DNA of 10,236 nucleotides from the NCBI RefSeq assembly GCF_003334355.1, contig NZ_QOWP01000056.1; one strand, given 5' to 3'. The position numbers were made by a program, and so were the translations under genes. The DNA comes from Escherichia coli. Its GTDB lineage: Bacteria; Pseudomonadota; Gammaproteobacteria; Enterobacterales; Enterobacteriaceae. This document shows, piece by piece, positions 1,649-10,236 of this stretch. The notes below the pieces were generated by a model. That model searched no databases. It was not told where the DNA came from and saw only the letters and a program-made list of their open reading frames with translations. Within the stretch, counting starts at the first letter, position 1, and each line of letters opens with the position of its first letter.

Positions 1649-2752
1649 ATGAGTGACAGCCAGACGCTGGTGGTAAAACTCGGCACCAGTGTGCTAACAG
1701 GCGGATCGCGCCGTCTGAACCGTGCCCATATCGTTGAACTTGTTCGCCAGTGCGCGCAGTTACATGCCGCCGGGCATCGGATTGTTATTGTGACGTCGGG
1801 CGCGATCGCCGCCGGACGTGAGCACCTGGGTTACCCGGAACTGCCAGCGACTATCGCCTCGAAACAACTGCTGGCGGCGGTAGGGCAGAGTCGACTGATT
1901 CAACTGTGGGAACAGCTGTTTTCGATTTATGGCATTCACGTCGGGCAAATGCTGCTGACCCGTGCTGATATGGAAGACCGAGAACGCTTCCTGAACGCCC
2001 GCGACACCCTGCGTGCGTTGCTCGATAACAATATCGTTCCGGTAATCAATGAGAACGATGCTGTCGCTACGGCAGAGATTAAGGTCGGCGATAACGATAA
2101 CCTTTCTGCGCTGGCGGCGATTCTGGCGGGTGCCGATAAACTGTTGCTGCTGACCGATCAAAAAGGTTTGTATACCGCTGATCCGCGCAGCAATCCGCAG
2201 GCAGAACTGATTAAAGATGTTTACGGCATTGATGACGCACTGCGCGCGATTGCCGGTGACAGCGTTTCAGGCCTCGGAACTGGCGGCATGAGTACCAAAT
2301 TGCAGGCCGCTGACGTGGCTTGCCGTGCGGGTATCGACACCATTATTGCCGCGGGCAGCAAGCCGGGCGTTATTGGTGATGTGATGGAAGGCATTTCCGT
2401 CGGTACGCTGTTCCATGCCCAGGCGACTCCGCTTGAAAACCGTAAACGCTGGATTTTCGGTGCGCCGCCTGCGGGGGAAATCACGGTAGATGAAGGGGCA
2501 ACTGCCGCCATTCTGGAACGCGGCAGCTCCCTGTTGCCGAAAGGCATTAAAAGCGTGACTGGCAACTTCTCGCGTGGTGAAGTCATCCGCATTTGCAACC
2601 TCGAAGGCCGCGATATCGCCCACGGTGTCAGTCGTTACAACAGCGATGCATTACGCCGTATTGCCGGACACCACTCGCAAGAAATTGATGCAATACTGGG
2701 ATATGAATACGGCCCGGTTGCCGTTCACCGTGATGACATGATTACCCGTTAA
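1649..2752 (+). CDS. proB: Glutamate 5-kinase (proline biosynthesis)
   Basis: 367-aa ORF beginning [19 protein letters not shown]..., recognised as E. coli ProB. The track ORF begins at an upstream TTG (1562); the ATG at 1649 matches the known N-terminus. Confidence 0.96.
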
Positions 2753-2763
2753 GGAGCAGGCTG

Positions 2764-4017
2764 ATGCTGGAACAAATGGGCATTGCCGCGAAGCAAGCCT
2801 CGTATAAATTAGCGCAACTCTCCAGCCGCGAAAAAAATCGCGTACTGGAAAAAATAGCCGATGAACTGGAAGCACAAAGCGAAATCATCCTCAACGCTAA
2901 CGCGCAGGATGTTGCTGACGCGCGTGCCAACGGCCTTAGCGAAGCGATGCTTGACCGTCTGGCACTGACGCCCGCACGGCTGAAAGGCATTGCCGACGAT
3001 GTGCGCCAGGTGTGTAACCTCGCCGATCCGGTGGGGCAGGTAATCGATGGCGGCGTACTGGACAGCGGCCTGCGTCTTGAGCGTCGTCGCGTACCGCTGG
3101 GGGTTATTGGCGTGATTTATGAAGCGCGCCCGAACGTGACGGTTGATGTCGCTTCGCTGTGCCTGAAAACCGGTAATGCGGTGATCCTGCGCGGTGGCAA
3201 AGAAACGTGTCGCACTAACGCTGCAACGGTGGCGGTGATTCAGGACGCCCTGAAATCCTGCGGCTTACCGGCGGGTGCCGTGCAGGCGATTGATAATCCT
3301 GACCGTGCGCTGGTCAGTGAAATGCTGCGTATGGATAAATACATCGACATGCTGATCCCGCGTGGTGGCGCTGGTTTGCATAAACTGTGCCGTGAACAGT
3401 CGACAATCCCGGTGATCACAGGTGGTATAGGCGTATGCCATATTTACGTTGATGAAAGTGTAGAGATCGCTGAAGCATTAAAAGTGATCGTCAACGCGAA
3501 AACTCAGCGTCCGAGCACATGTAATACGGTTGAAACGTTGCTGGTGAATAAAAACATCGCCGATAGCTTCCTGCCCGCATTAAGCAAACAAATGGCGGAA
3601 AGCGGCGTGACATTACACGCAGATGCAGCTGCACTGGCGCAGTTGCAGGCAGGCCCTGCGAAGGTGGTTGCTGTTAAAGCCGAAGAGTATGACGATGAGT
3701 TTCTGTCATTAGATTTGAACGTCAAAATCGTCAGCGATCTTGACGATGCCATCGCCCATATTCGTGAACACGGCACACAACACTCCGATGCGATCCTGAC
3801 CCGCGATATGCGCAACGCCCAGCGTTTTGTTAACGAAGTGGATTCGTCCGCTGTTTACGTTAACGCCTCTACGCGTTTTACCGACGGCGGCCAGTTTGGT
3901 CTGGGTGCGGAAGTGGCGGTAAGCACACAAAAACTCCACGCGCGTGGCCCAATGGGGCTGGAAGCACTGACCACTTACAAGTGGATCGGCATTGGTGATT
4001 ACACCATTCGTGCGTAA
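2764..4017 (+). CDS. proA: Gamma-glutamyl phosphate reductase (glutamate-5-semialdehyde dehydrogenase)
   Basis: 417-aa [35 protein letters not shown]..., recognised as ProA. AGGAG 2751-2755 precedes the ATG; 11-bp gap after proB indicates an operon. Confidence 0.96.
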
Positions 4018-4022
4018 ATAAA

Positions 4023-4088
4023 ACCGGGTGATGCAAAAGTAGCCATTTGATTCACAAGGCCATTGACGCATCGCCCGGTTAGTTTTAA
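4023..4088 (+). terminator. Long-loop stem structure downstream of proA followed by a short U-run; possible proBA terminator overlapping the thrW promoter region
   Basis: ACCGGGTGATGC (4023-4034) pairs with GCATCGCCCGGT (4067-4078): 12 bp with one G-U, 32-nt loop, then TAGTTTTAACC. The loop is too large for a classic terminator, so this is weak. Confidence 0.3.
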
Positions 4089-4131
4089 CCTTGTCCACCG
4101 TGATTCACGTTCGTGAACATGTCCTTTCAGG

Positions 4132-4207
4132 GCCGATATAGCTCAGTTGGTAGAGCAGCGCATTCGTAATGCGAAGGTCGTAGGTTCGACTCCTATTATC
4201 GGCACCA
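4132..4207 (+). tRNA. thrW: tRNA-Thr (anticodon CGU)
   Basis: 76-nt sequence GCCGATATAGCTCAGTTGGTAGAGCAGCGCATTCGTAATGCGAAGGTCGTAGGTTCGACTCCTATTATCGGCACCA with encoded CCA; anticodon loop carries CGT; matches E. coli thrW. Confidence 0.96.
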
Positions 4208-4224
4208 TTCAAACATCTCCCCAA

Positions 4225-4245
4225 GTCTACTAAAGTCTTTCAAAA
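4225..4245 (+). repeat. Direct repeat copy 1 (GTCTACTAAAGTC + YYTCAAAA) between thrW and int; candidate integrase arm-type or accessory-factor site
   Basis: 13-bp core GTCTACTAAAGTC at 4225-4237 is identical to 4288-4300; flanking CTTTCAAAA vs CCCTCAAAA. Confidence 0.7.
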
Positions 4246-4287
4246 CCCCTTATAATCCGCGTATTAAAGCCCCGTTCGTCTTTTGAC

Positions 4288-4308
4288 GTCTACTAAAGTC
4301 CCTCAAAA
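4288..4308 (+). repeat. Direct repeat copy 2 (GTCTACTAAAGTC + YYTCAAAA)
   Basis: Identical 13-bp core, 63 bp downstream of copy 1. A perfect TATAAT hexamer (4251-4256) lies between the two copies. Confidence 0.7.
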
Positions 4309-4372
4309 TCTACGGTCAGATGGGGGTACTTATGGGGGTATTTGCTGTTCGGTTTAGTGGAGGTACCCCCAA

Positions 4373-5587
4373 GTGAAACTCAATGCCCGTCAAATAGACA
4401 CAGCCAAGCCAAAAGAGAAGGCTTACAAGCTGGCCGATGGTGGCGGTTTGTATCTCTTGGTAAAACCTAATGGAGGTAAATACTGGCGACTTAAATATCG
4501 TGTAGCTGGTAAAGAGAAGCTATTGGCACTAGGTGTGTATCCTGAGGTTACTCTAGCCGATGCTCGGGCAAAACGTGAAGATGCGAAAAGAGGTATCGCT
4601 GGTGGTATCGATCCGATGGAAGCGAAACGAGAGGAAAAGATTGCCCGGGAAACGCAGTTAAACAACACCTTCAAAGATATTGCCCTTGAGTGGCACAGCA
4701 GCAAATTAAAAAAATGGTCTGCTGGTTATGCTTCAGACATCCTCGAAGCCTTCAACAAAGATGTGTTCCCTTACATTGGCAAAAAACCAATCGCCGAAAT
4801 CAAACCACTTGAACTTCTGAATGTGCTGCGGCGCATTGAGGGGCGCGGTGCTACAGAAAAAGCCAAAAAAGTGAGGCAGCGGTGCGGGGAAGTTTTCCGC
4901 TATGCAATAGTCACTGGTCGCGCAGAGTATAACCCTGCACCAGACCTTACTAGCGCGATGCAAGGCCATGAATCTAATCATTACCCTTTCCTTACAGCCA
5001 AAGAATTACCTGATTTTTTCAAGGCATTGTCCAGTTACTCAGGAAGCGCATTGGTTGTTATGGCGGCTCGTCTACTGATTATCACAGGCTTGCGGACTGG
5101 CGAACTACGTGGCGCATTATGGGATGAAATTGATTTCAACAAGGCTCTCTGGGAGATACCCGCTTCACGTATGAAAATGCGGCGGCCTCATATTGTGCCA
5201 TTGTCTGAGCAGGCTCTTTCGCTTATTGGGAAGATTAGAGAAATAACAGGCAATTACCCTCTTATGTTTCCCGGGCGCAATGATCCAAGGAAAACAATGA
5301 GTGAGGCCAGCATAAACCAAGTGTTTAAGCGCATTGGCTACGCTGGACGTGTAACTGGTCATGGGTTCCGGCACACTATGAGTACGATTTTGCATGAGCA
5401 GGGCTATAACACCGCGTGGATAGAAACGCAGCTCGCTCACGTTGATAAGAACTCAATTCGTGGCACATACAACCATGCGCAATATCTGGATGGAAGGCGG
5501 GAGATGCTTCAATGGTATGCCGACTATATGGATTCTCTCGAGCATGGCGGAAATGTGGTGCATATGGTGTTTGAAAAACACGCATGA
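4373..5587 (+). CDS. Site-specific tyrosine recombinase, P4-type integrase family
   Basis: 404-aa ORF with GTG start, GGAGG 4359-4363. N-terminus KLNARQIDTAKPKEKAYKLADGGGLYLLVKPNGGKYWRLKYR is typical of the P4-family integrase N-terminal arm-binding domain; C-terminal GHGFRHT...RGTYNHAQY carries the H-x-x-R and catalytic Tyr motifs. Sits immediately 3' of a tRNA. Confidence 0.92.
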   Translation: MKLNARQIDTAKPKEKAYKLADGGGLYLLVKPNGGKYWRLKYRVAGKEKLLALGVYPEVTLADARAKREDAKRGIAGGIDPMEAKREEKIARETQLNNTFKDIALEWHSSKLKKWSAGYASDILEAFNKDVFPYIGKKPIAEIKPLELLNVLRRIEGRGATEKAKKVRQRCGEVFRYAIVTGRAEYNPAPDLTSAMQGHESNHYPFLTAKELPDFFKALSSYSGSALVVMAARLLIITGLRTGELRGALWDEIDFNKALWEIPASRMKMRRPHIVPLSEQALSLIGKIREITGNYPLMFPGRNDPRKTMSEASINQVFKRIGYAGRVTGHGFRHTMSTILHEQGYNTAWIETQLAHVDKNSIRGTYNHAQYLDGRREMLQWYADYMDSLEHGGNVVHMVFEKHA

Positions 5588-5840
5588 AACAACTGGACAA
5601 GTATACAGAGGTTTACTAAAGTATAGGGGAGTAGATTGATAAAAACTCACAGAGGATTACTATTTAACAGTTAGCCCTGGAGAAGGGCAATCGCTCTTTT
5701 AACAACGAAGATGGAATCTTCTACGCAGCTGAAAAGCTGGATGCTCTTTAACAGCCTTTGGTGCTTTCCTGATGCAGGAAAGAATAGGGATACATGCACC
5801 TTTACAATGCATGTAATGATTCATCCATGAGGCTGCGGAT

Positions 5841-5863
5841 CGCTGACAAAGCGCAATTGCTCT
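5841..5863 (+). repeat. 23-bp direct repeat copy 1 (CGCTGACAAAGCGCAATTGCTCT) with palindromic GCAATTGC core; candidate operator
   Basis: Identical to 5954-5976. Part of a 26-bp imperfect dyad TGACAAAGCGCAA|TTGCTCTTTAACA. The right arm GCTCTTTAACA recurs at 5743-5753 and, with one extra T, at 5692-5704. Confidence 0.8.
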
Positions 5864-5953
5864 TTAACATTGATGTGGGCGGGATGGTTCGTCCCGCAGT
5901 GACCGATAGATTTCTATCGGGAAACATACAATGATTCAAATATGAATCTACGG

Positions 5954-5976
5954 CGCTGACAAAGCGCAATTGCTCT
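5954..5976 (+). repeat. 23-bp direct repeat copy 2 (CGCTGACAAAGCGCAATTGCTCT)
   Basis: Perfect copy 113 bp downstream of copy 1. Similarity extends upstream imperfectly (ATGAGGCTGCGGAT vs ATGAATCTACGG). Confidence 0.8.
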
Positions 5977-6238
5977 CTTGCCTGCCCACCATGCCCTGAA
6001 AAAGGGCGTTCTTTAAAACTACTGGATGTCACGCCTAATAGCGTGATCCTGCCGAAATGCAGGGTAGCTCTACCCTTGTGGAGCAAACAAACCAAAACAA
6101 TCTGACTATCTTTTATAAAAGACCGCAATATGTTTTTCATATTGTGGTCTTTGGCGTATTCGACATTTGATGCAAATAAAACTCTCGCCATTCGTTGCAG
6201 GAGGGAGTTATTGCGTCATTAGTACAGGATATTAATAA

Positions 6239-6442
6239 ATGGCTAATTACAATTCATTAATTCGTCTCTCTGAAGTTCAAAGGCGAACTGGTTATAGCAA
6301 AGCATGGATTTATCGTCTTATTAGTCAGGGGAGGTTCCCTAAACAGGTAAAAATTGGAAGTCGGGCAATTGCTTTTGTTGAGTCTGAAATAGATGAATGG
6401 ATTGAGAAGTGTATATTAGAATCTAGAGACGAGGTGGCCTGA
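6239..6442 (+). CDS. alpA: AlpA-family phage regulatory protein (Xis/Vis-like winged-helix DNA-binding protein)
   Basis: 67-aa ORF MANYNSLIRLSEVQRRTGYSKAWIYRLISQGRFPKQVKIGSRAIAFVESEIDEWIEK...; helix-turn-helix segment and E-I-D-E-W motif characteristic of AlpA/Vis family; typical position downstream of a P4-type integrase. Confidence 0.85.
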   Translation: MANYNSLIRLSEVQRRTGYSKAWIYRLISQGRFPKQVKIGSRAIAFVESEIDEWIEKCILESRDEVA

Positions 6443-6873
6443 TGGAAAAGAAAAACCGCCCATTACAGGCGGCTAATTCAGATATTCGCGTATCTGATGT
6501 TACGCCCCTGACAAAATCCCTTCAAGCACCAAAGCGCACACCGAAAAAGCATCGTGCCAGAGTCTATATGCTGCGTACTGGTATAGAGGGATGGACAGAA
6601 AATGACATTCTTCGCTACTGCCGTCTGTCTTCTGGTCGTAACTATGCAACAGAGTTAGAACGCCAGCTTGGAATCACTCTGGAGCGTATCGACGAAAAGA
6701 ATCCTGATGGTATCGGAACACACCTTCGCTACCGTTTCTCCTGCCGTGGTGATGTTCTGAAAGTGATCACTCATGTTAACCATCTTGCGAGCATAAATGA
6801 TCACAACGGACTTTCTCAGCAGGAAATTGCCGACATTCTGAAACTCTACCCGGACGCGTTTAACGCCGCCTAA
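6442..6873 (+). CDS. Hypothetical protein (143 aa), basic N-terminal tail; function unknown
   Basis: ATG overlaps the alpA stop (TGATG); GAGGTGG SD at 6431-6437. No family recognised. Confidence 0.7.
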   Translation: MEKKNRPLQAANSDIRVSDVTPLTKSLQAPKRTPKKHRARVYMLRTGIEGWTENDILRYCRLSSGRNYATELERQLGITLERIDEKNPDGIGTHLRYRFSCRGDVLKVITHVNHLASINDHNGLSQQEIADILKLYPDAFNAA

Positions 6874-6885
6874 CGGAGACTGAAA

Positions 6886-7719
6886 ATGAACATCGAAAAA
6901 AGCAGATTAATTTCTGAGGCCGCCCCTCATCTGAACGCCTCTCTGGGCACAATTAACGGTAATGAATTTGCCGCAATTGTCCCGGTTATTCCTGGTCATA
7001 TCGGTGGGCGTGAAACCAATATTGTTAGCGCAAAAGCGTTACACAAAGCGTTGGGCGTGGGAAAAGACTTCTCTACATGGATCACTGATCGCATCTCTGA
7101 ATATGACTTCACCATTGGGCACGATTACTCAGTCCATAAAACAATTTCCCCAAATTTGGGGAAAAGCCCGAATGGCGCGGCTTACAGCAAGATTAAGCAG
7201 TCTGGCAGACCCGGCAAAGACTATCTGTTAAGTGTCGGAATGGCGAAAGAACTGGCAATGATCGAACGCAATGATCAGGGTCGCGCTATCCGCCGTTATT
7301 TCATCCAGTGCGAGGAAGAATTACAGCGTAGCGTGCCTGAAATCGCCGCCCGCTATCGTCGCCAGCTAAAAGCCCGTATCAGTGCCGCAAACAACTTTAA
7401 GCCAATGTGCGATGCGCTGAATATGGCCCGTGCCGAGATGGGTAAAACGACGCAGCAACACCACTACACAAACGAGAGCAATATGATTTCTCGTATCGTT
7501 CTTGGTGGGCTAACTGCTAAGCAGTGGGCGCGGATAAATGGCTATTCTGGCGAACCTCGCGACCATATGAACGCAGAACAGCTTGAGCACCTCTCATATC
7601 TCGAAAGCACCAATATCACGTTAATTGATATGGGCATGGAATATGAGCAGCGCAAAGGAGAACTCACCCGCCTGTCGCAACGCTGGCTCGCCAAGCGTCT
7701 GGAGGTGGTCAATGTCTAA
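6886..7719 (+). CDS. Phage antirepressor-like protein (AntA/KilAC-type N-terminal domain), 277 aa
   Basis: GGAGA SD 6875-6879. Motifs ...AKALHKALGVGKDFSTWITDRISEYDF... and ...DYLLSVGMAKELAMIERNDQGRAIRRYFIQCEE... resemble the AntA-type antirepressor N-terminal domain as I recall it. Confidence 0.8.
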   Translation: MNIEKSRLISEAAPHLNASLGTINGNEFAAIVPVIPGHIGGRETNIVSAKALHKALGVGKDFSTWITDRISEYDFTIGHDYSVHKTISPNLGKSPNGAAYSKIKQSGRPGKDYLLSVGMAKELAMIERNDQGRAIRRYFIQCEEELQRSVPEIAARYRRQLKARISAANNFKPMCDALNMARAEMGKTTQQHHYTNESNMISRIVLGGLTAKQWARINGYSGEPRDHMNAEQLEHLSYLESTNITLIDMGMEYEQRKGELTRLSQRWLAKRLEVVNV

Positions 7720-7894
7720 GCCAACAGGAACACCACAACCACAAAAACGCTACAAAGATGCCCACGGAGCACTCGTTACTGTCGAAAGCGTGTCTCACAA
7801 CCGAGTGACGTTTTATCGCGACGGGTATCAATCGCCATGCGTACAACCGCTGGCGCGTTTCATGAAGGAGTTCGCGGAGGTTAACAAATGCTAA
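7712..7894 (+). CDS. Small phage-type protein (60 aa); tentatively DUF4222-like
   Basis: ATG 7712 with GGAGGTGG 6 nt upstream, overlapping the upstream stop (ATGTCTAA). Translation [60 protein letters not shown]. The track ORF starts further upstream (7625) inside the preceding gene; the internal start is better supported. Confidence 0.65.
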   Translation: MSKPTGTPQPQKRYKDAHGALVTVESVSHNRVTFYRDGYQSPCVQPLARFMKEFAEVNKC

Positions 7895-8955
7895 CCGTCC
7901 AGAAGAAGACATTTTCACTGGCTGGTATGTCGCCAAAATCCAGCAATATGACGGCAAAGTCAGGCATTAATACAGCAGATACAAGCAAAGTTTATCATTT
8001 GCTGGTGGTCGGAACGGATGCCTTAACCATATCAGAAATCTCGGGCGATGATATTAGCATTGAGAAGGTCAGCGGCTGCGCCAGAAAATTTCTGGTCGTA
8101 GATGATGTCTTCCGCTCGTGTAGTGACTCCACAAAAACATTCGTCCACGCGCGTGACGTTAACGAAATGAGCGCGATGTACTGTGCATCTGGTGCTTCCA
8201 ATAGCGAGTTTTCGGAGTCCATAAAAAAGAGCTTGCCGTTATGCGGCAACACGGTTTATGGTTATAAGGCACCTCATAAAACGGGTGCCGGGATTGGCGT
8301 CCTGGTAAATCGAATGGCGACATATGACGCGCCGAGCGTCTTTTTTTATGTCGTAGGTCTGACTCACCCATTTTTTGGGCGTTGGTGTATAATCCAGCGC
8401 CTTTGTCAATCAATGGTGGCTCAGGCAGGGGCTTCTTCGGAAGCGCCGGTATCCATTCGAGCCGGTTACGCCAACCCTGTCTGGGCTACCACCAGCGAAA
8501 TTGGCGTTTCCGGTGGTAGCGTTACATGCTATCGAATGGAGGCTGCCACATGCTGGCTACTACCCCTACCCAAAAACCGCAATTTATCTGGATTATCGCC
8601 GCAGTTCGCCGCGATTGCCCGACAATTACCGCCAAAATTCATCATATTGCTGCCGAGTCTGAACGCGATGCTCGCCGTTCTCTGGTGCGCGATCACGTCT
8701 GCTTTTTTGCTGGTCGTATCCGCATGGAGGTGGCACATGATTAAAACCTACGATGTGCATATGGATCCCCTCGAACGCACAAGCCAGATCATCACACTGA
8801 CAGAAGTGATTAACGACATTCTGGTGAGCAACTCTCCCTCACGAGACGAAAGACTGAAGGCGTTACTCGCGATATTGGATCTCGCCGTTCGTGACGTTCA
8901 TTTCCTGCTGGAAGGTGGCGAAATGCCAGGAAAAACGGGGGCAACCAATGAATAA
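7888..8955 (+). CDS. Unresolved 355-codon open frame: real N-terminal gene start at 7888; frame stays open through the structured RNA region, the Icd-like gene (other frame) and the 8737 small gene
   Basis: ATG 7888 with GGAGG 7 nt upstream and ATGCTAA overlap with the upstream stop supports initiation. No stop in this frame until 8953-8955. Residues ~176-215 ([35 protein letters not shown]) resemble what databases label ash family protein, but this stretch coincides with strong RNA hairpins. The true C-terminus is unknown. Confidence 0.3.
8326..8347 (+). terminator. Intrinsic-terminator-like element inside the 7888 frame
   Basis: GACGC (8326-8330) / GCGTC (8336-8340) 5-bp GC-rich stem, 5-nt loop, followed by seven T (8341-8347). 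A second T6 run is at 8371-8376. Confidence 0.35.
8388..8393 (+). promoter_or_regulatory. Consensus -10 hexamer TATAAT, TG immediately upstream; possible promoter for the structured RNA/icd leader
   Basis: GTGTATAAT at 8385-8393. No convincing -35 at 17 bp spacing, so weak. Confidence 0.25.
8428..8520 (+). ncRNA. Candidate c4/CI-type antisense regulatory RNA (three consecutive hairpins)
   Basis: HP1 8431-8444: GCTTC/GAAGC stem with TTCG tetraloop. HP2 8445-8466: 6-bp stem (2 wobble) with a 10-nt loop carrying TCCATTCGA (8452-8460). HP3 8485-8520: 9-bp stem CTACCACC.../...GGTGGTAG plus 6-bp inner stem, TTGG loop. The HP2 loop is exactly complementary to TCGAATGGA (8532-8540), which overlaps the GGAGG SD of the Icd-like gene, and 8/9 complementary to 8310-8317. 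Confidence 0.4.
8550..8744 (+). CDS. Host cell division inhibitor Icd-like protein (64 aa)
   Basis: ATG 8550 with GGAGG 8538-8542. Translation [64 protein letters not shown]; the F-x-W-x-x-x-A-V-R-R ... E-x-x-A-R-R ... F-A-x-R pattern matches my recollection of Icd-like proteins of P1/P4-type elements. The track start at 8526 lacks an SD. Confidence 0.6.
   Translation: MLATTPTQKPQFIWIIAAVRRDCPTITAKIHHIAAESERDARRSLVRDHVCFFAGRIRMEVAHD
8737..8955 (+). CDS. Small acidic hypothetical protein (72 aa), independently initiated
   Basis: ATG 8737 with GGAGGTGG at 8727-8734; overlaps the icd-like stop as ATGATTAA. Translation [72 protein letters not shown]. Same frame as the 7888 ORF. Confidence 0.55.
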   Translation: MIKTYDVHMDPLERTSQIITLTEVINDILVSNSPSRDERLKALLAILDLAVRDVHFLLEGGEMPGKTGATNE

Positions 8956-9142
8956 CTCAATTAATACCCCTCGCCTTACGTCCGCACTTCAATTAATCGA
9001 GCAAGCAGCGGCTGTCCTGGTTGCTGTCAGTCTTTCGGCTGAAGAAATGGACGCTGCTGATGTCGTGGATGCGATTAAAGCGTGCTCATCTTTGGTTAAC
9101 GATGCCCGTGCCGAGCTGGTAATTCTTGGGGGTGAAAAATGA
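8948..9142 (+). CDS. Small acidic hypothetical protein (64 aa)
   Basis: ATG 8948 overlapping the upstream stop (ATGAATAA); [64 protein letters not shown]. The track start at 8891 lies inside the upstream gene. Confidence 0.6.
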   Translation: MNNSINTPRLTSALQLIEQAAAVLVAVSLSAEEMDAADVVDAIKACSSLVNDARAELVILGGEK

Positions 9143-9402
9143 ATATCAACTTAATTTATCGTCATCCGTGTGAGCTGGAAATTGAATCATTGCTGGGGCG
9201 TGAAGAGCCATATCCAGACACATTCACTCCCGCAGATTGCGCGACTGAACGGCTTACCAGAGCGCGCACAGGTCTGGTTCATGTGATGAATGAGATTGTT
9301 CCCTCGGTGGGAGGGGAACAGGCGACAGTAATCAATAGCTGGCTACAAAAAGTTACCTCCCTGATAGATATCGGTTTAATCGATGTGGAGAGTGCGAAAT
9401 GA
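9139..9402 (+). CDS. Small acidic hypothetical protein (87 aa)
   Basis: ATGA overlap with upstream stop; GGGGGTG upstream; MNINLIYRHPCELEIESLLGREEPYPDTF... Confidence 0.65.
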   Translation: MNINLIYRHPCELEIESLLGREEPYPDTFTPADCATERLTRARTGLVHVMNEIVPSVGGEQATVINSWLQKVTSLIDIGLIDVESAK

Positions 9403-9620
9403 CCAACATCCAGCTCATTGAAGCGCAATGTCGCATCGAACAGGTTCAGACTGTTTTAGGGTTCTGGCTTGAAGGGGCCAGCCCCAGCAACAGAGACAAG
9501 TTAATGATTGGCGCGGTTATGTCACTGCTCAATGGCGTACCAGAAGCTATTCAGGAAGCGGACGAATTGTTGGGCAAATATGAGTTACAGAATCATTCAG
9601 GCGAGGCGAAACATGAATAA
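9399..9620 (+). CDS. Small acidic hypothetical protein (73 aa)
   Basis: ATGA overlap with upstream stop; GGAG at 9387-9390; MTNIQLIEAQCRIEQVQTVLGFWLEGASPSNRDKLMIGAVMSLLNGVPEAIQEADELLGKYELQNHSGEAKHE. Confidence 0.6.
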   Translation: MTNIQLIEAQCRIEQVQTVLGFWLEGASPSNRDKLMIGAVMSLLNGVPEAIQEADELLGKYELQNHSGEAKHE

Positions 9621-10161
9621 TTTCTTAACCTTCCATGCAGAAGCAACGCCTGACGGCGTAAACATCATGCACCGCAGCAACGATGGCATGACAGAACGCG
9701 TTGAGACCGTCTCATATATTGATGCCGTAAATCGTCTGGATGCCGGGGATTATGACGATAAACCAGATGAAGGCATGTTTATACATCTCGCTATTGCCAG
9801 TGGCGGCAACCAGGGATATTTCGATTACACATCACAGCATCACGTGATTATGTGGCGCTGGCTGATAGCAACAGCATTCATCAATGAAATGAGAAAGGAA
9901 AACGGCACCGTCAGCATTATTGATGACAGTGGCAATCATTCCGTGGTTTCTGTTTATTCCAATGGCATCGTCGCCATGCCGCTGTATCCAGTAGCAGAGC
10001 GCCTCGCTATGGCAAACAACATTGAGGGCGCAATGATCGAGAAATATGGTGTTGATGTCGGAACAAAGAATGCCATCATTTTTTACAGCAACATGTTCGA
10101 TGTCGAACAGGGAACACTCACTTCGTTTGGGCGAGAAGTGCTTGCCGATCTTCACAACTGA
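9613..10161 (+). CDS. Hypothetical protein (182 aa); stop codon supplied by the first 3 nt of the downstream IS, so possibly C-terminally truncated
   Basis: ATG 9613 overlapping upstream stop (ATGAATAA), GAGG at 9603-9606; MNNFLTFHAEATPDGVNIMHRSNDGMTERVETVSYIDAVNRLDAGDYDDKPDEGMF.... The track start at 9508 is inside the upstream gene. TGA 10159-10161 coincides with the IS terminal TGAACCGCC. Confidence 0.7.
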   Translation: MNNFLTFHAEATPDGVNIMHRSNDGMTERVETVSYIDAVNRLDAGDYDDKPDEGMFIHLAIASGGNQGYFDYTSQHHVIMWRWLIATAFINEMRKENGTVSIIDDSGNHSVVSVYSNGIVAMPLYPVAERLAMANNIEGAMIEKYGVDVGTKNAIIFYSNMFDVEQGTLTSFGREVLADLHN

Positions 10162-10236
10162 ACCGCCCCGGAAATCCTGGAGACTAAACTCCCTGAGAAA
10201 GAGGTAAACAGGATGACTAAAAATACTCGTTTTTCC
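10159..10236 (+). mobile_element. IS3-family insertion sequence (IS629/IS1203-like), left end; continues beyond window
   Basis: TGAACCGCCCCGGAAATCCTGGAGACTAAACTCCCTGAGAAAGAGGTAAACAGG then ATG...MTKNTRFS matches my recollection of the IS629-type left inverted repeat and OrfA N-terminus. From memory, not verified. Confidence 0.65.
10213..10236 (+). CDS. IS3-family transposase OrfA, N-terminal 8 codons (3'-partial at window edge)
   Basis: ATG 10213 preceded by GAGG; MTKNTRFS...; only 24 nt available. Confidence 0.5.

Follow-up and report, generated by a model that had tools for sequence, protein, structure and literature searches.

Why does an island gene of Escherichia coli stop exactly where an insertion sequence (IS) begins, and what would the island have lost by it? 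The question is raised by a stretch of 10,236 nt (hereafter the window), which is the entire draft contig QOWP01000056.1 of assembly GCA_003334355.1 and has IS repeats at both ends. Close to its right end, an open reading frame (ORF, 9613-10161) starts with an ATG at 9613 and, after 182 codons, ends on a TGA at 10159-10161. A sequence-only reading had proposed that an IS3-family element begins at this stop codon, that the ORF was truncated by the insertion, and that a primase may have been displaced or lost downstream. The comparisons reported here bear it out on the element, on the truncation and on the primase gene, which follows in the closest IS-free relatives. We consider it very probable that the overall explanation is an IS insertion which truncated the gene and parted the primase from its operon. 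This is a routine case, an ordinary insertion into a prophage-like element, of a kind already well understood. Beyond annotation little is at stake, and wider interest attaches only to the sharing of the junction between two island haplotypes.

The IS boundary and the truncated gene

The features of the window are collected in Table 1. Megablast of positions 9300-10236 against 5426 complete E. coli genomes gave many matches of 99.8-100% identity, all ending at 10158 (position 859 of the query). The empty site reads ...CTTCACAAC|AGCTTTATT..., i.e. ...CACAAC|AGC..., and in strain 510016 it is found as ...GATCTTCACAAC|AGCTTTATTGCCGAACTAAACGAAAACGGCATCCCAGAAGCACCAGTGACGCACTAA. Because homology stops at 10158 and the empty site lacks the IS, the boundary of the element lies between 10158 and 10159, that is, between codons 182 and 183. 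Comparison with the empty site also confirms the proposal that the TGA of the ORF is made of the first three nucleotides of the IS terminal repeat. With a 141-nt probe, the empty site was found in 231 of the 5426 complete genomes; the filled junction (147-nt probe, at least 80% coverage) was found in none of them.

The window closes with TGAACCGCCCCGGAAATCCTGGAGACTAAACTCCCTGAGAAAGAGGTAAACAGGATGACTAAAAATACTCGTTTTTCC, which occupies 10159-10236. This sequence starts with TGAACCGCCCCGG, exactly at the end of the empty-site homology, and the IS3-family end proposed at the terminus of the ORF turned out to be the left end of IS629/IS1203, with 78 identical positions out of 78 from 10159. This identity was tested on 78 of 1310 bp, 6% of the element, with no difference within the visible part. 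The same 78 nt are present in 5746 records and in 3566 of the 5426 complete E. coli genomes, where RefSeq names the product "IS3-like element IS1203 family transposase". IS629, IS1203 and IS3411 are isoforms of one IS3-family element, the sub-types of IS629 being 4-5% apart (PMC3271280). A full copy in the O157:H7 strain PV15-279 (locus L002, 2001-3310) served as reference: it is 1310 bp long, starts with TGAACCGCCCCGG, ends with CCGGGGCGGTTCA, has imperfect inverted repeats (23 of 28 positions) with TG...CA termini, and lies between the two copies of a 3-bp duplication, AAG. The transposase coding sequence begins 54 nt in and includes a programmed frameshift. In the window, the element reads in the same direction as the island operon. 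Since it starts with an in-frame TGA, the truncated protein carries no foreign tail; such a stop is unremarkable, being expected for one third of insertions in the same orientation.

The IS-free loci encode a protein of 200 aa (WP_001058739.1), identical to the ORF over residues 1-182 and continuing ...ADLHN|SFIAELNENGIPEAPVTH. Codon 183 is AGC in the empty site, and the reading frame stays open for 18 more codons. The 200-aa gene was found in 10 out of 10 further loci fetched via the primase (see below). The exact 200-aa sequence occurs in at least 1000 contigs, and the exact 182-aa form in 9-13 contigs, with protein records WP_087899586.1, OWD70153.1 and RCQ16931.1. In an alignment of 57 sequences, whose named sources are Escherichia, Salmonella, Klebsiella, Enterobacter, Citrobacter and Kluyvera, the intact homologues are 196-210 aa long, about 60-92% identical, and retain the C-terminal tail beyond residue 182. 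Seven tail residues are invariant in this alignment (I185, A186, L188, N191, P194, P197 and H200). The family profile phrog_1515 (203 positions, function unknown) matches with E=1e-47 and extends to residue 200, its last position being reached only by the 200-aa form. The sequence-only reading had held that homologues ending at ADLHN in IS-free contexts would speak against truncation. None was seen among the aligned intact, IS-free homologues, and the shorter relatives encountered were solely contig-end partials or otherwise disrupted alleles. The ORF is truncated by the insertion, as that reading had supposed.

Searches with the truncated protein gave no Pfam match, and a PDB fold search with its AF2 model gave no significant hit (best E=0.39, TM<0.21). 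In the model, whose mean pLDDT is 70, the last helix is formed by residues 171-191 and spans the cut at 182. The truncated protein is without the second half of this predicted helix and without the conserved 18-residue C-terminus. Judging from conservation, it is probably impaired. WP_087899586.1 (182 aa) is to be annotated as the product of a truncated pseudogene, not as a member of the family.

Disrupted alleles of the same 200-aa gene were also seen in other public genomes (P0049, P0039, P0045 and P0041). One is a fusion of 255 aa, in which the N-terminus of an IS3-family OrfA (PF01527) is joined to residues ~67-200. The three others have a diverged C-terminal part and look frameshifted; two are 187 aa long and one 209 aa.

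Table 1. Features of the island and of the IS junction in the window.
Feature	Position	Strand	Basis
tRNA-Thr(CGU), thrW, downstream of proA; attachment site and left island boundary	4132-4207	+	ARAGORN; same arrangement in L003, L012 and MP1
Tyrosine integrase, 404 aa	4373-5587	+	Pfam Arm-DNA-bind_3, Phage_int_M, Phage_integrase; RefSeq identical locus
129-aa ORF between integrase and alpA	5802-6191	-	
Island operon upstream of the truncated gene	6239-9620	+	Gene calls, Pfam, RefSeq products, EcCIMP1 synteny
alpA-like regulator	6239-6442	+	Pfam Phage_AlpA
143-aa ORF	6442-6873	+	
AntA/AntB antirepressor	6886-7719	+	
DUF4222 protein	7712-7894	+	
Ash-family protein	7888-8955	+	
Three small ORFs	8948-9142, 9139-9402, 9399-9620	+	
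Truncated island gene, codons 1-182 of a 200-codon gene, phrog_1515 family	9613-10158	+	Translation, homology
AAC, last target bases; predicted left copy of a 3-bp duplication	10156-10158	.	Inferred; right copy beyond the contig
IS629/IS1203 (IS3 family), first 78 nt of 1310 bp	10159-10236	+	78/78 identity to IS1203-family copies
IS left inverted repeat	about 10159-10186		Comparison with full reference copy
TGA, first three IS bases, stop codon of the truncated gene	10159-10161	+	
IS orfA/transposase, first 8 codons, MTKNTRFS	10213-10236	+	54-nt offset in L002

The satellite island and the primase gene of its IS-free relatives

Upstream of the tRNA gene, the window holds the 3' end of crl, followed by phoE, proB and proA. 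By its sequence, the island belongs to the EcCIMP1 family of phage-inducible chromosomal islands (PICIs, phage satellites), with thrW, beside proA, as its integration site. In E. coli MP1, the P22-like phage Kapi1 mobilises EcCIMP1, whose excision and transfer also require alpA and the integrase of the island (PMC11773190); induction, excision and packaging by a helper have been demonstrated by experiment for this pair only. AlpA of the closest IS-free loci, WP_000035054.1, has the same accession in MP1. By analogy with that system, the target of the insertion would be the replication module of an EcCIMP1-family satellite, for which dependence on a helper is only predicted here. The 129-aa ORF on the minus strand is a RefSeq hypothetical protein in close relatives (WP_225389441.1) and is missing from the annotations of MP1 and of strain J6 (locus L003). 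In satellites, this position is often taken by a repressor or by variable cargo.

The primase that the sequence-only reading had guessed to lie downstream was found in the closest IS-free relatives, where a gene for a primase of 918 aa starts 13 nt past the TAA of the 200-aa gene. It contains the domains Zn_Ribbon_Prim, Toprim_3 and DUF927 and matches phrog_1139, "DNA primase", with E=3.5e-178. An intact 200-aa gene followed by the primase was present in the 12 independent IS-free loci examined that have the same gene arrangement. The window itself contains no primase gene, its sequence ending 78 nt into the IS.

Downstream of the primase, IS-free relatives encode homologues of the P22-type DNA ejection/injection proteins (Pfam Inj_translocase and Phage_P22_gp16; L001 10270-12859, L012 29411-33160, and L023, the MP1 locus, 14481-19827). 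MP1 has in addition a DUF2824 protein and a lytic transglycosylase. Ejection proteins are an unusual cargo for a satellite with neither capsid nor terminase genes; they fit a P22-like helper. In J6, direct and inverted TGAACCAAC / GGTTGGTTCA repeats, resembling the iterons of a replication origin, are located downstream of the primase (L003 16370-16480). A copy of the same IS, of the GGG isoform, is found at L003 16693, ~200 nt past the repeats and about 350 nt downstream of the primase.

The event in the window is best explained as follows. A copy of IS629/IS1203, an element whose two overlapping ORFs (orfA and orfB, for a DDE transposase) are joined by a programmed -1 frameshift and which moves by copy-out/paste-in, transposed into the 3' part of the 200-codon gene of an EcCIMP1-family PICI at thrW. 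IS629/IS1203 normally leaves a target duplication of 3-4 bp, and AAC is the duplication predicted here. After a simple insertion of a presumably complete IS, the right side would read ...GGGGCGGTTCA-AAC-AGCTTTATTGCC... and run into a primase gene that would still be there. Translation of the interrupted gene stops at once at the TGA of the IS, leaving the 182-aa product. The IS would sit between the primase and the promoter of the island operon, with 1.3 kb added, and expression of the primase would then have to rely on read-through across the IS or on IS-borne transcription.

A consensus scan, in itself weak evidence, revealed no promoter-like site on the plus strand from the insertion point up to the ATG of the primase. 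As no primase promoter is recognisable in the region of the 13-nt gap, the IS would separate the primase from the operon promoter. Inside the IS, a scan of the same kind and of the same weak value found no strong plus-strand terminator, and one weak plus-strand terminator-like site. Replication of the satellite would, at best, depend on read-through of the IS. Decay of the island is probable, and this EcCIMP1-like copy is probably impaired in replication.

Competing explanations of the junction

Positions 1-158 of the window are an ISVsa5/IS10-like (IS4-family) terminus inserted in crl, and chromosomal homology begins at 159. From there to 10186 the window is matched at 100% identity by L005, a Logan contig in which crl is intact; the crl::IS10 insertion is therefore specific to the source strain, and the IS629 junction is shared. 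Short-read assembly broke off in a repeat on both sides of the window. The right end does not mark where the island stops, and is for this reason silent on the presence of the primase and of the remainder of the island. All contigs with the left junction end 27-78 nt into the IS. An exact pattern search for the left junction (CCGATCTTCACAACTGAACCGCCCCGG[AAA]) gave no match in the collections genome_contigs, metagenome_contigs and viral_contigs. No match was found either for the right junction (CGGGGCGGTTCA-N0-8-AGCTTTATTGCCGAACTAAACG) in these three collections, which are without the left junction too. The contigs found to encode the exact primase are long IS-free contigs only.

Could the 182-aa ORF be full length by nature, with the IS just past its stop codon and nothing truncated? 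That the ORF ends cleanly, without a foreign tail, would suit such a reading, but this is only a coincidence: the empty site has no stop there, AGC being followed through to the end of 18 more codons, and all aligned full-length homologues carry the tail that the PHROG profile also covers. Empty site and homologue alignment together refute it, and it is almost certainly wrong. Nearly as improbable is an assembly chimera, in which the end of the contig would have been mis-joined to a repeat. The window is a short draft contig with repeats at both ends, and the junction is in no complete genome; against a chimera, an exact IS terminus (TG...) meets an exact break in homology, and the junction is seen in Logan runs ERR4578542, SRR3823860 and SRR30947255, in the ENA metagenome ERZ28645592 and in at least two NCBI protein records. 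Its recurrence in independent assemblies and runs (L004, L005, L007 and L011) shows that the junction is no assembly artefact. A more serious contender, which we nevertheless hold to be unlikely, is that an IS-mediated deletion or inversion borders the element, the primase having been lost or relocated together with the 3' end of the gene and the rest of the island. The right junction, an IS end followed by 0-8 nt and AGCTTTATTGCCGAACTAAACG, is indeed in none of the scanned collections. Target duplications of IS629 are 3-4 bp long, and matching ones were found at only 21 of 47 sites in O157, more than half being without (PMC3271280); IS629 is known to promote deletions (PMC9943667). However, the collections do not contain the left junction either, hence their silence is uninformative, the junction contigs all end within the IS for technical reasons, and plain insertion accounts more easily for a left junction common to two haplotypes. 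A plain insertion with duplication of AAC is fairly likely.

The two haplotypes came from a look-up of the exact 182-aa sequence, which returned five contigs with a real IS junction. Group A is made of the window itself (L006), L005 and L007. Its island is at thrW in L005 and L006, while L007 starts inside the island; the integrase is that of 404 aa, and the IS isoform reads ...CCGGAAATCC...AAACTCC. Identity to the window is 100% over 10,028 nt for L005 and 100% over 6,007 nt for L007. Group B is made of L004 (ENA ERZ28645592 scaffold_174, island at 4192-10598) and L011. L004 has yicC as its neighbour, its locus carries no tRNA, and its integrase is a different one, of 419 aa. The IS isoform of group B reads ...CCGGGAATCC...AAACTTCC, and group B shares with the window only 6432-10210, from the end of alpA onward, at 98.3% identity. 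The two groups show two differences in the first 52 bases of the IS. The 674 nt flanking the junction are identical between them, but also in most aligned IS-free alleles (with a few differing bases in L003 and L009), and this flank is therefore uninformative. Farther upstream, group B is mosaic and carries SNPs of its own, and its nearest IS-free relative among complete genomes is only 98.9% identical.

Two accounts of this sharing have to be set against each other. The two haplotypes may represent independent insertions of IS629/IS1203, identical in nucleotide position and in orientation, or one old insertion may have spread by recombination, its IS end being converted from resident copies. 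Groups A and B differ in IS isoform and, in L004, in integrase and chromosomal site, and sub-types of IS629 diverge by 4-5% (PMC3271280), all of which speaks for independent events. On the other side, IS629 reportedly lacks a sequence-specific target (PMC3271280), no sequence resembling an inverted repeat was found at the site beyond chance, only two haplotypes are available, and the islands are mosaic, so that a single ancestral insertion could have travelled by recombination with gene conversion of the IS end. We lean, without great conviction, towards one old insertion; independent insertions are possible but somewhat doubtful. That 10158/10159 is a true hot spot for IS629-type elements, hit independently by two isoforms in two diverged satellite lineages, is more doubtful still, and we regard it as unlikely. 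Were the insertions independent, they would point to a rare site preference in an IS considered to have none. A hot spot would mean an unrecognised target preference of IS629/IS1203, e.g. for a DNA structure or a protein-bound site by the primase gene, or alternatively recurrent selection for knocking out satellite replication.

Some observations on the target itself may be added. Insertion beside sequences resembling IS ends is reportedly known from IS911. Such targeting was considered here and discarded: the best match to an IS end in the 80-nt target region was no better than in shuffled sequences. In E. coli MS 196-1 (L024 4990-5022), an IS copy in the tnpC gene of an IS66 element has the left flank GGAAGGCTTCCGTCTCTTCAACC, which resembles the left flank in the window, GAAGTGCTTGCCGATCTTCACAAC, at about 18 of 24 nt. 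A target motif derived from this likeness was not retained, as the sites in L002 and L003 are without similarity to it, and the likeness was treated as possibly due to chance; it could reflect either chance or a weak target preference. Finally, three Logan contigs (L008-L010) were retrieved solely for ending at the junction or 2 nt past it. L009 (SRR30750646) and L010 (SRR28469833) are unitig-derived contigs that end exactly at the AAC before the IS. Such ends would be expected of a branch in the assembly graph where filled and empty alleles coexist.

Likeness to known systems

The element in the window shares its left end, 78 nt out of 78, with IS629/IS1203/IS3411; the TG...CA termini, the length of 1310 bp and the -1 frameshift were seen in the reference copy. 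What sets the window apart from known IS629 copies is the site, which is missing from all 5426 complete E. coli genomes. In O157, 62% of IS629 copies reside in prophages or prophage-like elements (PMC3271280). The gene-inactivating insertions in prophages and prophage-like elements of O157:H7 resemble the present one in the element, in the class of target (an integrative phage-related island) and in the outcome, a split gene with a possible polar effect. In the present case, the target is a gene of a putative satellite replication module and not one of a lambdoid prophage, in a host not identified as O157.

The island itself is best compared with EcCIMP1 of MP1, which occupies the same thrW/proA site. 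Gene order is the same in both, i.e. int, alpA, the 143-aa ORF, AntA, DUF4222, Ash, small ORFs and the 200-aa gene, followed in EcCIMP1 by the primase. Nucleotide identity between MP1 and the window is 94.7% over 6008-10158 and 97.5% over 1871-5760. MP1 differs in having an Ash pseudogene and, between the 200-aa gene and the primase, two additional small ORFs. The 200-aa gene of MP1, with 86% amino acid identity, is intact, whereas the copy in the window is interrupted by the IS.
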